Under the pieces are notes generated by a model. It saw only the letters and a list, made by a program, of their open reading frames with translations. It had not been told where the DNA came from and searched no databases. This document shows, piece after piece, positions 8,682-22,290 of a DNA stretch of 33,597 bases. The stretch is from a virus (taxonomy: Duplodnaviria > Caudoviricetes): positions 1 through 33,597 of IMG/VR virus record IMGVR_UViG_3300027820_000071; one strand, 5' to 3'. The stretch's first letter is position 1, and every line of letters starts with the position of its first letter. Both the position numbers and the translations under genes were made by a program.

Positions 8682-9548
8682 ATGAAACTTATGCTTGTTG
8701 CTTCGCTATTTATGGGGGTAGCAGACGCTAGCCCTTTCTATTTTCAAACGACTCTAGGCGGGGCTGGCAGCTTCGAGAGAGGGCCTGAGCATCCAACAGC
8801 AAGTATTGCCATCGGTGCAGCTGTTTATGAAACAGAGCGATTTGGCATAGACTTAGAGGCTGGATACACACGTATCGGCACTGTAAAGGCAACTCCAAAA
8901 GTAGAACATACTGTTTGGTATGAGCCGATTCCTGTTGTTCCAGTTCCAACAGAAAGACCAGAGCCAACAGAGCCGCTACCAATCATTTCTGAGCCCGCTA
9001 AGCCTATAGGGCCTCCTGCTCAAGTTAAGATTGAAACTCCTCCGCCAGAACTTGCTGAGCCTGAGCCTGAGACAGAAAACGATAAGCCAATCCTTGTGAT
9101 AGATGTTCCTATTGATCTAGCTCTCCCTGGAAAACTTCTGGCTCGCTCTGTGAAAGGTGCTCCTGAAGGCATAAGGATAAACGGGCAGGAGCTAAAAAAG
9201 TACATCCCGAAATACAGCACTGATCTGTATCAAACAACGATTGGAGCCAGGCTTAAATTAGGTAATTTCATGTGGATACAGCTTAGAGGCGGTGCTGAGA
9301 AGAAAGTTATTGATGGTCAGATCGATGAAAAGAGGCAGAAGGGAGAGACTATCAACTGGCGGATTAAGGAAAAGTTTCGGGATGATGAAATTACGTATGT
9401 TCTAGGAGGCTCTGTCCTTTTGAATCTACGCAAACAGCTTATGGGCGTGCTGAAATTCGACTACCACGACCTTAATAACCGCGTTGATGATAATAGCTTC
9501 CAGACTGACGATATTATAGTCAGTGCTGGCTTAAGGTTTGGGTTTTAG
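8682..9548 (+). CDS. Outer-membrane beta-barrel protein with Pro/Glu-rich insertion
   Basis: Signal peptide ending ADA, amphipathic strands (FGIDLEAGYTRIG, IGARLKL, LKFDYHD) and a C-terminal beta-signal SAGLRFGF. Confidence 0.7.
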   Translation: MKLMLVASLFMGVADASPFYFQTTLGGAGSFERGPEHPTASIAIGAAVYETERFGIDLEAGYTRIGTVKATPKVEHTVWYEPIPVVPVPTERPEPTEPLPIISEPAKPIGPPAQVKIETPPPELAEPEPETENDKPILVIDVPIDLALPGKLLARSVKGAPEGIRINGQELKKYIPKYSTDLYQTTIGARLKLGNFMWIQLRGGAEKKVIDGQIDEKRQKGETINWRIKEKFRDDEITYVLGGSVLLNLRKQLMGVLKFDYHDLNNRVDDNSFQTDDIIVSAGLRFGF

Positions 9549-11412: not shown

Positions 11413-12419
11413 CAGAGCCTGCTTATCTTTTCGAGATATTTAATTGAAAGGCTAGAAAGATCTTCTAAGACTTCATGTTGTATTTCGCTTAACTCCTCAT
11501 CTTCAATGGAAACGCCATCAATAAATCTGAGCTTCTTAACCCAATCTTGAAGCCTTTCTTTCTCTGGCCGTAATTTCTCTTGCCTAGCCTTCTCTGCCTC
11601 TTCCTCTTCCTTCTTCTGCTCTGCAAGTTCCTTCTCTCTTTTCTCCAGCTCTAGCTGTTCGTTCTCTTCCTTTAACTTCCTTGCTGTAGATTCTGCTTCT
11701 GCAAGTTTCTTTGCCTCAATCTCTCTTTTCTCCTTCTCGATAGCTTCTTGAGCAAGCCGTATTTTTTCGTTCTCTGCATCTATCCTAGCCTGCTCTTCTG
11801 CCTGCTTCTTCTCTTGCTCTTCCTGGAGAACACGAAGCCGCTCTAATTCTTCCTTTTCTTCTATTGCTACAGAGAGTTTTTTAACTCCAGCATTTTTTGC
11901 AATTACAGCATCATCAAAAAACTCTTGATATTCTTCTTCCGTTATCTCGATTTTAGTTAGATCTGATAAGTAGATTTTTAGCTCTGCTGAATCCTTACCA
12001 AACATATTATTAGCAGGGCCTCTAATGTCGTATTCTATCTTGTGATTTATGTTTTCTTTCCGCTCTTCTTCCCTTTTAAGCTTTTCTGCGGCTTCCCGCA
12101 CTGCCTTATCATCAACTTCTTTTCTTAGCGCTTTTAACCTATCCTCTTCAGGCACTACGATATCCAGCAGTCTTTTCTGCTCTGAAAGAACGGCTTTAGA
12201 AAACTTATTTGCATCATTCCTTGCAGCTTTCCCTGCCTTTTCTATTGACACCCTTACTTTTTGGAACTCCCTGCACGCACCCTTAACCAACGAATAATCA
12301 TCAGAGTTCGAGATTTCAGTAACATCAGAAAACTTTTTAGATAACGAGGTTAATTCTTGCTCTGTGTGGTCTATAGATAACGCTGCTTTAGCTCGTTCAT
12401 TAACGGTTAACTCTTTCAT
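11412..12419 (-). CDS. Long coiled-coil protein (DUF1351-like)
   Basis: KVRVSIEKAGKAAR...EEDRLK followed by Glu/Lys/Ala heptads. Directly downstream of ERF. Confidence 0.65.
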   Translation of the reverse strand: MKELTVNERAKAALSIDHTEQELTSLSKKFSDVTEISNSDDYSLVKGACREFQKVRVSIEKAGKAARNDANKFSKAVLSEQKRLLDIVVPEEDRLKALRKEVDDKAVREAAEKLKREEERKENINHKIEYDIRGPANNMFGKDSAELKIYLSDLTKIEITEEEYQEFFDDAVIAKNAGVKKLSVAIEEKEELERLRVLQEEQEKKQAEEQARIDAENEKIRLAQEAIEKEKREIEAKKLAEAESTARKLKEENEQLELEKREKELAEQKKEEEEAEKARQEKLRPEKERLQDWVKKLRFIDGVSIEDEELSEIQHEVLEDLSSLSIKYLEKISRL

Positions 12420-13177
12420 TGCGCAGCCCTTTTTAAGTGATCATGGAAAATTGCCCAGTATGTTTTTTTGCATCCTTCAGGAGCCGAGGACTTCATTATC
12501 TTTTGAAGGTGAATCCGCTCATCACTTGATAACGGCTCATATAGCTCACGGGCATTAGCTGGCCCATTCTCCTCATCATCTAGATCAACGATGTCTTTCG
12601 CATCTTTTGATAATCCTTGTATTTTCTTTACATCAACCTTTACAGAGTCATCAACAGACTGAGATTGATTTGGCTGTGACGCTGTATTCCCGTCATCATC
12701 GATCTGATAAACCCCAGCCATTGCAGCCAATGCATAACGCCTAGCATATGTGATACAGCTACCGATCCCTTGAGGATCTGATTTCATCGGAACCATTGTC
12801 AACTTAGAGCGCATCCACTGCCCGGATGTATGTGTTAGCTGAGTAACTAGGCCAACACTACCAACACCACCAATAGGCATTTGAACAACAGAGATACCAT
12901 TTTCTGTAAATGGGCCCCTAATATCGTCCCAGACTGCGCTCAGGTCCGCGTACTTGGATTTAAAAAAAGGGTTAGTGCTGTCCTTGACTGCACCTTGCAT
13001 AGCCCCCTGAGCCTTACACAGAGCCGTAGACAGCTCTGCTATGTCTGGTGAGCACTGGAATTCAAAGTCCAGATTTGCTGCCCTTCCGACAGCTTCCCCA
13101 GAGCCTCTTAATGCGCCGCCAATTATATTATCGATCTTTTTTTCATGGTCTGTATCAATGCTCATTTTCTTCTCCAT
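12416..13177 (-). CDS. erf: ERF-family single-strand annealing protein
   Basis: ALCKAQG....AVKDSTNPFFKSKYADL, HTSGQWM and DPQGIGSCITYARRYAL.AMAG....DDDGN. Confidence 0.93.
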   Translation of the reverse strand: MEKKMSIDTDHEKKIDNIIGGALRGSGEAVGRAANLDFEFQCSPDIAELSTALCKAQGAMQGAVKDSTNPFFKSKYADLSAVWDDIRGPFTENGISVVQMPIGGVGSVGLVTQLTHTSGQWMRSKLTMVPMKSDPQGIGSCITYARRYALAAMAGVYQIDDDGNTASQPNQSQSVDDSVKVDVKKIQGLSKDAKDIVDLDDEENGPANARELYEPLSSDERIHLQKIMKSSAPEGCKKTYWAIFHDHLKRAAQ

Positions 13178-13283
13178 TCTCTAGTTCAATCATCTTTTCA
13201 TGCTCAGCCCAATGCTGTTCTTCTTCCATGTGTTCATAAAGCTCTCTCTCTACTTCGTATTCGTGTCTGTCTTGGTTGCTCAT
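13155..13283 (-). CDS. Small acidic protein (42 aa)
   Basis: MSNQDRHEYEVERELYEHMEEEQHWAEHEKMIELENGEENEH* with RBS ACAGGGG. Confidence 0.55.
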   Translation of the reverse strand: MSNQDRHEYEVERELYEHMEEEQHWAEHEKMIELENGEENEH

Positions 13284-13301: not shown

Positions 13302-13424
13302 TGGAGGCAACTTGATAAAAGGTCAGGATACGAACCTGACGTCTTCCTCTGTCGAGTCTGTTTTTCCAGCCAGTACCCTGGCTCTGGTTCCCCAGATTTA
13401 TTAAACTACTCTCATCAAGTCGCC
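13302..13424 (-). ncRNA. tRNA-like RNA with 16-bp acceptor stem and 3' UCCA
   Basis: GGCGACTTGATGAGAG pairs fully (with G-U) to CTTTTATCAAGTTGCC, followed by TCCA. D-like arm TA-GTTT...GAAC. T-like arm GTCAGG-TTCGTAT-CCTGAC. Confidence 0.7.
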
Positions 13425-13585
13425 ATTGACTCTGCTCCTGGAACCTTAAATAACAACAATAACTGTGAAGATAGCCACAAGAGCAACACACATAACGATC
13501 AGATCCCCTTTAAAATCCTCTCGATATTTCCGCTCTTGCTTAGCTCTATCCACGTTCGTTCGTAAGTGTATGTATTCTTTTCTCA

Positions 13586-13774
13586 TTATTTTTGTCCTAA
13601 AGGGCTATCATCGCAGTCTAGGCAAGCAAGACCGTTTCCACGTCCTACACAGTCACACATTTCAACTGGTGGTATTCTGTCCATGCGTGGATCGTTCATG
13701 AACGATTCCAACCATGAATGATTAGGCGCCATGGATGGACGTGTAAGCCATACTGGGAACTGTATTATGTTCAT
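13586..13774 (-). CDS. Small Cys-motif protein
   Basis: CDC...CLDC, with TAATG coupling to the upstream gene. Confidence 0.5.
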   Translation of the reverse strand: MNIIQFPVWLTRPSMAPNHSWLESFMNDPRMDRIPPVEMCDCVGRGNGLACLDCDDSPLGQK

Positions 13775-14075: not shown

Positions 14076-14102
14076 TTATCGGCCCGAATATCGAAACCTT
14101 TA
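14076..14102 (-). promoter_or_regulatory. sigma28/FliA-type promoter 1
   Basis: Minus strand TAAA-GGTTTCGATATTCGG-GCCGATAA, the exact TAAA-N15-GCCGATAA consensus. Confidence 0.85.
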
Positions 14103-15168: not shown

Positions 15169-15402
15169 CTATTCCTGATTCCCGCTCCTGCTCCAGCTCC
15201 TGCTCCAGCTCCTGCTCCTACTCCCGCTCCTGCTCCAGCTCCTGCTCCCGCTCCCGCTCCCGCTCCTGCTCCATCTCCCGCTCCTGCTCCAGCTCCCGCT
15301 CCCGCTCCCGCTCCTGCTCCATCTCCCGCTCCTGCTCCAGCTCCCGCTCCTACTCCCGCTCCCGCTCCCGCTCCTGCTCCTGCTCCAGCTCCTATACATC
15401 AT
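15169..15402 (-). CDS. Arg/Ser/Gly/Trp low-complexity protein
   Basis: ATGA-coupled to the upstream gene and co-oriented with the operon. (SR/SG/SW)n. Confidence 0.6.
   Translation of the reverse strand: MMYRSWSRSRSGSGSGSRSGSWSRSGRWSRSGSGSGSWSRSGRWSRSGSGSGSRSWSRSGSRSRSWSRSWSRSGNQE
15178..15393. repeat. 6-bp tandem repeat tract (CTCCNG)n
   Basis: About 36 units of CTCCTG/CTCCCG/CTCCAG. Confidence 0.95.
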
Positions 15403-15656
15403 TTCAGTATCCCGTAGCTTTCAATAGAGGCAGTCCTGACATAAAAATCATTAGGGAGCGACTGCGCATCTTTCCAAGATTCCTCATTGAATGCTCCGGT
15501 TTCATACACAATGGCAGGATCAGATAATTTAACGTCTGAATCATTCACGCCAACAAGTTTCCCTGTATAGATATAGTTCACACAAAACAGCGTAATACGC
15601 TGCCCCATCAGAGAAACCAATCCTTCGCCTTCAACATCTTCAATCAATCGTTTCAT
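15399..15656 (-). CDS. Small Sm/LSm-like beta protein (DUF6948-like)
   Basis: LMGQRITLFCVNYIYTGKLVGVNDSDVKLSDP...FYVRTASIESY. RBS AAGGGG. Confidence 0.6.
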   Translation of the reverse strand: MKRLIEDVEGEGLVSLMGQRITLFCVNYIYTGKLVGVNDSDVKLSDPAIVYETGAFNEESWKDAQSLPNDFYVRTASIESYGILK

Positions 15657-21933: not shown

Positions 21934-21960
21934 TTAACGGCACCTGACCTGAAACCTTTA
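21934..21960 (-). promoter_or_regulatory. sigma28/FliA-type promoter 3
   Basis: TAAA-GGTTTCAGGTCAGGT-GCCGTTAA (N15). Confidence 0.8.
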
Positions 21961-22170: not shown

Positions 22171-22199
22171 GTCATAACCTCGTTGTGTACCCTAAACAA

Positions 22200-22215
22200 T
22201 GCAGAACACATGCCA
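22200..22215 (-). promoter_or_regulatory. sigma54 -24/-12 promoter
   Basis: TGGCATGTGTTCTGCA is GG-N10-GC, about 30 bp upstream of ATG 22170. Confidence 0.7.
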
Positions 22216-22290
22216 ATAATTATAAGTACCTGAATACAGGACAGATAGGCAAAACAAGAACAATATACCAACCAGTATCTAGGTAAGAGA

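Follow-up and report, generated by a model that had tools for sequence, protein, structure and literature searches.

What is encoded on the minus strand at positions 13302 to 13424 of the window, by which we mean the whole 33,597-nt stretch of phage DNA analysed here? The initial annotation had described a tRNA mimic with a 16-bp acceptor stem, an encoded CCA end and no anticodon loop, and both its sequence and its placement on the minus strand were as it gave them. We found that the 123 nt are a real feature, which is, on its predicted fold, a candidate gene for an undescribed tRNA-like RNA with a 22-bp acceptor branch; a function can be proposed by inference. A single variant copy, in the metagenome locus L392, served for comparison. 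The predicted parts are as follows.

13302..13424, minus strand: predicted tRNA-like RNA, 123 nt (fold and shuffles; variant copy L392 717-839)
13425..13427, minus strand: AAU leader before G+1, predicted RNase P site, same in L392
13409..13424, minus strand: 5' strand of the acceptor helix (RNA 1-16), beginning G1 G2 C3, unchanged in L392
13387..13408, minus strand: U8-A9-like linker and D-arm-like segment (RNA 17-38), with two possible registers
13368..13383, minus strand: anticodon-position hairpin (RNA 42-57), either 6 bp closing a 4-nt loop or 5 bp closing a 6-nt loop
13347..13356, minus strand: 3-bp hairpin in a long variable region (RNA 69-78), from pair probabilities
13322..13340, minus strand: 6-bp T-arm with a 7-nt loop and a pyrimidine at position 58 (probabilities and L392 comparison)
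13306..13321, minus strand: 3' strand of the acceptor helix (RNA 104-119), unchanged in L392
13302..13305, minus strand: discriminator U and encoded CCA, unchanged in L392
13284..13301, minus strand: U-rich trailer and ribosome-binding site (RBS) of the next gene, 15/18 identical in L392

The minus strand of the element (13424-13302) folded at -52 kcal/mol (z -6.17), and none of 200 shuffled sequences was equally stable, whereas the plus strand over the element reached -35.7 kcal/mol (z -2.74). Thus, the fold signal is strand-specific, as an RNA would show. All 16 terminal pairs form, each with a probability of at least 0.98. Three of them are G-U pairs (positions 4, 12 and 14) and not four as had been counted; the fourth G-U lies within the proposed D stem. 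This helix is stacked on the 6-bp T-arm, which gives 22 bp, and is followed by the encoded U-CCA. The inner arms that had been drawn are supported for the hairpins 42-57 and 69-78 and for the T-arm 85-103 (probabilities 0.85-1.0, with the T-arm at 0.98 or more, except pair 42-57 at 0.42). However, the proposed D stem (19-22 with 35-38) had a probability of 0.0 in the energy model, and its register is therefore unproven. In L392, the change G35A converts a U-G of this stem to U-A, and the alignment to the distant RNAs discussed below favours pairing of the D segment with RNA 27-31, unlike the register first proposed.

Helices of 16 bp alone are not rare in the window (n=4). In 150 shuffled windows, the combination of a T-arm, an acceptor of at least 12 bp and N-CCA never occurred, and it occurred twice when the acceptor was allowed to be as short as 7 bp. 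ARAGORN found no gene and no tRNA over the window, and the Rfam check that had been recommended gave no described family over the element, whether the gathering score was the cut-off or E was allowed up to 10. The view that the element cannot be a normal tRNA is borne out by the ARAGORN result, by the 16 + 6 bp branch and by the anticodon-position hairpin, in which only a 4- or 6-nt loop and no 7-nt loop is possible. The U noticed at the A58 position is indeed present in the T-loop, and the encoded CCA was seen in both the window copy and L392.

Identical copies are present in L004/L005 (99.3% identical to the window over 10.8 kb) and in L383, L399 and L402. L392 (717-839) is the sole variant among 71 metagenome loci and differs at 5/123 positions (G35A, A60U, C84A, U91C, U95C), against 23/129 in its next ORF (Fisher p=0.0005). 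Its Erf core is 78% identical to that of the window, its upstream DNA is unrelated, and the shared sequence ends about 3 bases upstream of G+1. The high identity of the element could reflect recent cassette exchange rather than selection. The L392 changes break no pair, and no double-sided change separates both sequences; with five changes placed at random, all 35 pairs stay intact in 8% of trials (11% if the D stem is not counted), so this observation is weak on its own. Where the changes lie is more informative: none of the five falls in the 36 nt of acceptor helix plus U-CCA, two fall in the 7-nt T-loop and three in the 68-nt interior. Simple arithmetic gives about 3% by chance for this distribution, a pattern noticed post hoc. 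At T-loop positions 54/58, U/U in the window becomes C/C in L392, while U55, C56, G57 and the D-loop GG are unchanged; the same positions are U/A in 146/154 CCA-ended tRNAs of the fetched loci. This shift may be a retained pyrimidine pair or plain drift. With two distinct sequences of the element, covariation is thin.

L392 also carries at 510-576 (+) a 14-bp hairpin ending in G-CCA with an AAU leader (z -5.1). This hairpin, 140 nt upstream of the variant, coincides in part with a putative 51-aa ORF and has no Rfam or phage match.

Beyond these copies, the following searches added no homologue. BlastN against 50,697 phage records gave no match, and a genome collection search returned 0. Plasmid matches (442 records, one 36-nt piece, E=1) were rejected, since R478, which was inspected, lacks the T-loop and the partner strand. 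Pattern scans of viral sequences kept 1/4, 1/43 (the others with at most 10 pairs) and 1/93 loci, and each time this was the near-identical copy. The acceptor-end pattern gave 0/119 loci (51 distinct, at most 11 pairs) in a scan that covered 54/64 parts and whose returns did not include the known copy. Model R1 was built on one sequence, and so distant kin can be missed. On 50 of 82 related records (longer ones preferred), it found only the near-identical G046 and none of 17 near-complete relatives; it found 0/8 among MAGs. The model was also run on 90/93 loci (L143, L144 and L157 left out) and on 100/120 loci.

The window record (G000) is 88% complete, and the flanks of the element are present. 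It includes terminase, portal, capsid, a LexA-type DNA-binding gene and an Erf-like annealing protein, and no tyrosine integrase was found in it. Among the capsid relatives, 7/12 loci are in bins labelled Gammaproteobacteria, which is weak evidence of the host. The phage is lambdoid-like, and the element is part of its leftward early operon as an accessory cassette. The neighbouring features are as follows.

15399..15656, minus strand: first ORF of the leftward operon, 85 aa, predicted Sm/Lsm fold (structure model)
14076..14102, minus strand: perfect match to a sigma-28-type promoter, upstream in the same operon
13446..13586, minus strand: 46-aa ORF upstream of the element, whose L006 homologue joins the acidic ORF directly
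13155..13283, minus strand: acidic ORF of 42 aa, downstream, no PHROGs or Pfam family
12416..13177, minus strand: Erf-like single-strand annealing protein (PHROGs/Pfam scans)

The element sits between the 46-aa ORF and the acidic ORF, and the latter overlaps Erf. In the relative L006 (Erf 74% identical), these two ORFs adjoin without the RNA. Thus, an accessory cassette of about 160 bases comprises the RNA together with the next RBS. No target duplication was seen at the cassette junctions between window and L006, and no dedicated promoter or terminator was found for the element. The sigma-28-type site (14102-14076, about 650 bases upstream of the element) is expected 0.006 times by chance. 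The element had been placed downstream of this promoter. However, the site occurs in L006, which lacks the RNA, and no such site lies in the 716 bases upstream of the RNA in L392, so a tie between the two is not supported. One-mismatch sites of this type also occur in the window at 21934-21960 (-) and 22193-22219 (+). The sigma-28-type motifs suggest that early genes may be linked to the flagellar state of the host. Elsewhere in the window, a 288-aa ORF at 8682-9548 (+) has a signal-peptide-like start, a Pro-rich insert and a weak outer-membrane beta-barrel match (E 0.003). In L006, a structure at 3890-3993 (+), directly behind the leftward promoter, has a 7-8-bp terminal helix, a T-like arm and a long irregular hairpin, no CCA and a z of only -1.7.

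Several ordinary identities were rejected for the locus. An intrinsic terminator was flagged but is not indicated, as such calls number five against 4.8 on shuffled sequence and the U-run takes part in pairing. The strand-asymmetric fold, the lack of a visible target duplication and the single copy in the window argue against a MITE-type insertion. Frames of 85 and 121 aa span the element, and L392 has no equivalent of the 85-aa minus-strand frame among ORFs of at least 30 aa, which argues against a coding role. A tRNA fragment at an att site is opposed by the lack of a tyrosine integrase in G000, by the non-canonical loop and by the fact that the 5' strand is the element's own partner.

A possible relative was found in the tRNA arrays of two large uncultured phages, where an RNA of about 190 nt lies at L161 361-551 (-) and at about L232 556-743 (+); it is not in Rfam. 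Model R1 gave a weak match in the L161 array (15 bits, E 0.17), and L232 was found by a pattern scan covering 40/64 parts. L232 is not an independent test, because the pattern that picked it had been derived from L161 and the window. Both RNAs have a D arm, two T-like arms and their own closing helix of 16-20 bp, which is paired in each although its sequence is not the same. The element aligned to them with scores of 49 (L161) and 47 (L232), against shuffle maxima of 35 and 33 and a maximum of 35 for 343 tRNAs. When the four sequences were aligned, every cell of the inner 8-bp helix was paired, with three one-sided changes, and the T stem had two double-sided changes; 11/500 shuffles reached the score, which is only suggestive where the sequences form two related pairs. 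Nothing in the alignment corresponds to the outer 8 bp and U-CCA of the element. On these comparisons, the RNA of about 190 nt looks distantly related to the element, and if this likely kinship holds, the outer 8 bp and U-CCA would be new. A search for more members gave three loci (two already known, one by chance), a search of phage records gave no useful record, and two distinct sequences make up the family as found. L369 was also listed with this RNA between large-phage tRNA genes.

The scan that found L232 also returned a promoter-like intergenic repeat, three times in one phage (L235, L236, L279), and a conserved structured-looking intergenic element in four phages (L257, L302, L314, L316). 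Other tRNA-like structures were seen in their own right. At L436 12801-12906 (-), there is a 106-nt tRNA missed by ARAGORN, with a Leu-like D arm, UGG in the anticodon loop, a very long variable arm and an ACCA end. L445 4296-4340 (+) is a 45-nt minihelix with a 7-bp acceptor, a canonical T-arm and G-CCA, intergenic before an RBS. In a 561-kb phage, two tRNA-Ser genes (L217 1118-1227 and 1004-1115, both -) have a leader and trailer whose pairing lengthens the acceptor stem to some 16 bp, and the helix end carries no CCA.

How would the RNA be made? RNase P normally measures from the tRNA elbow. In tRNA, the acceptor and T stems stack to 12 bp; in the element the stack reaches 22 bp, 10 bp more, so we infer that cleavage follows the CCA end, as in SRP and C4 RNAs, and not the elbow ruler. 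In both copies, G+1 is preceded by AAU, the helix ends in N-CCA and the leader does not pair with the CCA; the discriminator is U instead of the purine of the RCCA optimum. We consider it probable that a processed, discrete RNA is made from the element. The leader and the N-CCA end would direct the host RNase P to cut the leftward early transcript before G+1, and the T-loop would be free to drift if cleavage is CCA-guided. The AU-rich trailer would be trimmed to the CCA by the usual tRNA 3' pathway, which is well established. The 123-nt product would stay out of translation, and it could not decode, because it has no anticodon loop and its arm is about one helical turn too long.

These steps may be compared with what has been reported for RNase P. 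The E. coli enzyme has its optimum at A(-2)U(-1)/G(+1) and forms base pairs with the RCCA at the 3' end; SRP and C4 RNAs have an extended stem instead of a T-loop and are cut without T-loop contact; an extended acceptor stem can slow the enzyme (PMC10731613). In addition, for T-box binding it has been stated that helix insertions of 11 bp keep the phase and that those of 5 bp invert it (PMC4919913). The 22-bp branch with its optimal leader is also a natural test of ruler versus CCA-guided cleavage.

What could such an RNA do? The reading that we favour, tentatively and at somewhat less than even confidence, is that an accessory gene gives rise to a stable 123-nt RNA, released by RNase P, whose CCA-ended helix would act as a decoy for host enzymes that recognise tRNA ends. 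The G1-C72/G2-C71/C3-G70/U73 end would be bound and perhaps weakly cysteinylated, which is the least certain step, and the CCA end would soak up CCA-end toxins of the toxSAS/CapRel kind. Among 154 CCA-ended tRNAs of the fetched loci, only tRNA-Cys has the same acceptor end. U73 alone is reported to confer Cys identity on minihelices, with the GCA anticodon as another major determinant (PMC9976931). The toxSAS toxins are reported to recognise CCA together with the first five pairs and to modify minihelices; they have a link to anti-phage defence, and their specificity varies between families (10.1101/2024.07.05.602228). The FaRel2 determinants given there, C2-G71 and G4-C69, are unmet, as the element has G2-C71 and G4-U69. 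We count the second N-CCA hairpin of L392, with the same leader, as apparent support for the decoy, and the absence of the element from 17/17 near-complete relatives as apparently against it. A decoy must also outnumber host tRNA ends, and this speaks against it given that no promoter or terminator of its own was found.

It had been suggested that the element is a decoy for tRNA-targeting defence nucleases. For anticodon nucleases, this does not fit an RNA without an anticodon loop. The answer of phages to tRNA-targeting defence, as described in two reports, is replacement tRNAs (10.64898/2026.07.10.737580, 10.1101/2024.07.05.602228). In the first of these, OLD is triggered by phage recombination loci and cuts the anticodon arm, and OLD-type defence is overcome by replacement tRNAs, not decoys (10.64898/2026.07.10.737580). 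The nuclease-decoy reading is disfavoured on both counts. No untranslatable RNA decoy for CCA-end toxins was found in the open-access literature searched.

The first ORF of the operon may bear on one of the alternatives. Its model (pLDDT 90.9) had only Sm/Lsm chains as best matches (E 4e-4, TM about 0.6), and it has 1095 relatives, mostly viral, and no Pfam or PHROGs family. Thus, on the structure model it looks like a member of a widespread unnamed phage Sm-protein family. It is coupled to an Arg-Ser-Gly (RS) repeat ORF at 15169-15402 (-), and among the fetched relatives only one besides the near-identical G046 has it.

The main rival to the decoy is that the element is a cut mark in cis. At the tRNA-like fold, RNase P and 3' trimming would divide the early message in front of the Erf module, or would leave it with a 5' helix that protects it, and the RNA would be a by-product. 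We regard this as possible but rather unlikely. The RNase P-type leader and CCA, the position 18 nt before a start codon and the second, simpler CCA hairpin in the same operon of L392 all agree with it, as does the proposal that RNase P cleavage in the his operon stabilises part of the mRNA (PMC10731613). However, the 68-nt interior is conserved as well, with only the three L392 changes, which is more than a cut mark needs, and L006 keeps the same flanking genes without the element. The predicted opening of the RBS barely shifts on a +1 cut (0.64 to 0.55; 0.69 to 0.69) and changes modestly after a cut at the CCA (0.68; 0.91); a translation switch was rejected on these predictions. It is less probable, though not negligibly so, that the element is a decayed or neutral remnant of a tRNA or of a larger phage RNA of the L161/L232 family, recently carried between phages. 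Its likely kinship to the RNA of about 190 nt would fit, with the D-loop AGG, the first T-like arm and A58 missing, as would the drifting T-loop in L392 and the lack of the element in most relatives. On the other side, the outer 8 bp and U-CCA have no L161/L232 counterpart and pair perfectly, so that the outer helix looks like a gain and not like decay, and the element is conserved more than the next gene.

A scaffold of the Y RNA kind, in which the long helix and the tRNA-like module bind a ring protein (the phage Sm-fold protein or host Ro60), seems improbable to us. The layout resembles that of Yrn1 of D. radiodurans (PMC4201824). The 5' end of the element matches 5 of the first 6 letters of the GNCGAAN0-1G motif, with the last G out of place. 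The Sm-fold ORF is the first of the same operon, its RS-repeat neighbour also lies upstream of the RNA in L392, and L006 is without the Sm-fold ORF, the RS-repeat ORF and the RNA alike. However, a Ro60 (TROVE) gene was found in 0/5 records, including G000 and G046 (a control was detected in 2/14), the YrlA model of Rfam was not matched, and Y RNAs were found adjoining Ro60. The Sm-fold family is also far more widespread than the RNA (1095 clusters), and the relative L452 has it with no match to the RNA. Still less credible is an antisense regulator of c4/CI type, as had also been considered, which RNase P would mature and whose loops would pair with phage mRNA. RNase P acts on the C4 RNA, whose stem is extended (PMC10731613), and the element has long single-stranded linkers. 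But Rfam gave no C4 match, no repeated target pair like the a/b sites was seen, and complements of 9-10 nt are scattered over the window and look like chance (five of ten bases, none repeated in the left operon). We give least credence to a role outside the ribosome, in which CysRS or GlyRS would charge the RNA and a phage enzyme would use it as amino-acid donor. The U73 end and a shape incompatible with the ribosome would suit it, and Mom of phage Mu uses Gly-tRNA as donor (PMC13219725). However, no GNAT/Mom or similar protein was found among 60 ORFs searched with PHROGs and 30 with Pfam in a record that is 88% complete, and the element is without the GCA anticodon, a major Cys determinant (PMC9976931).

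Returning to the decoy for tRNA-end enzymes, its fullest form is a new class of phage RNA, in which an acceptor arm longer by one helical turn (22 bp) would be a cysteinylated anti-defence decoy, grown from a tRNA-array RNA by the outer helix and U-CCA and possibly held by a phage Sm ring. We consider this form unlikely. If it is true, the added turn would present the CCA end to synthetases and end-modifying toxins on an unchanged face, and would put the elbow beyond the reach of the RNase P ruler and of the ribosome.

The element can be set beside several known RNAs. A canonical tRNA has a 7-bp acceptor and a 5-bp T stem, a 7-nt anticodon loop and U54 with A58, whereas the element has 16 + 6 bp, a 4-nt or 6-nt loop only, and U/U (C/C in L392). 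It shares N-CCA on the terminal helix, encoded as U-CCA in both variants. Allo-tRNAs, selC* tRNA-Cys and tRNA-Sec are like the element in having acceptors of more than 7 bp, a long variable region and U73, but they are described with a 12-13-bp branch and an anticodon (PMC5389517). None of these was an Rfam match for the element. tmRNAs carry a G3-U70 alanine end and a tag ORF; the element has C3-G70, and neither ARAGORN nor Rfam reported a tmRNA, so this identity was rejected. The L161/L232 RNA shares the inner 8-bp helix, the start of the D-arm and the 6-position T-arm. It differs by its own closing helix without a CCA end, by the extra T-like arm and by a retained A58.

Y RNAs (Yrn1, YrlA) are also described with a long helix joining the 5' and 3' ends and a tRNA-like module, and Yrn1 with D-like features, a 5-bp 'anticodon' arm with a 6-nt loop and a T-arm (PMC4201824). 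However, the long helix of the element ends in an encoded U-CCA, and the arm order is D then T, whereas it is T then D in YrlA (PMC4201824). The C4 RNA of P1/P7 and pre-SRP (4.5S) RNA have, like the element, a stem extended past the cleavage site and an optimal leader (PMC10731613). They differ in that the element has no Rfam match to them, that no antisense targets were found for it, and that it keeps D-like and T-like arms. By analogy, the element would work most like these RNAs, which are cleaved by RNase P without being tRNAs.

T4 RNAC and RNAD (NC_000866.4 70908-71171) are phage-encoded, structured non-tRNA RNAs of about 120-140 nt, as is the predicted RNA of the element, and RNAC also has a T-arm near its 3' end. 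Their function is described as still unknown (PMC9697503). They are late RNAs in a tRNA cluster, whereas ARAGORN found no tRNA in the window; RNAC has a canonical T-loop, long irregular hairpins and a short terminal helix, unlike the element. Model R1 gave 10 bits (E 0.77) on RNAC/RNAD, so no homology was shown. We conclude that the element belongs in kind with T4 RNAC/RNAD without being homologous to them. Furthermore, it is small and alone in its operon, with a natural minus control in L006 and a natural variant in L392, and it thus gives a handle on the role of anticodon-less stable phage RNAs such as these.
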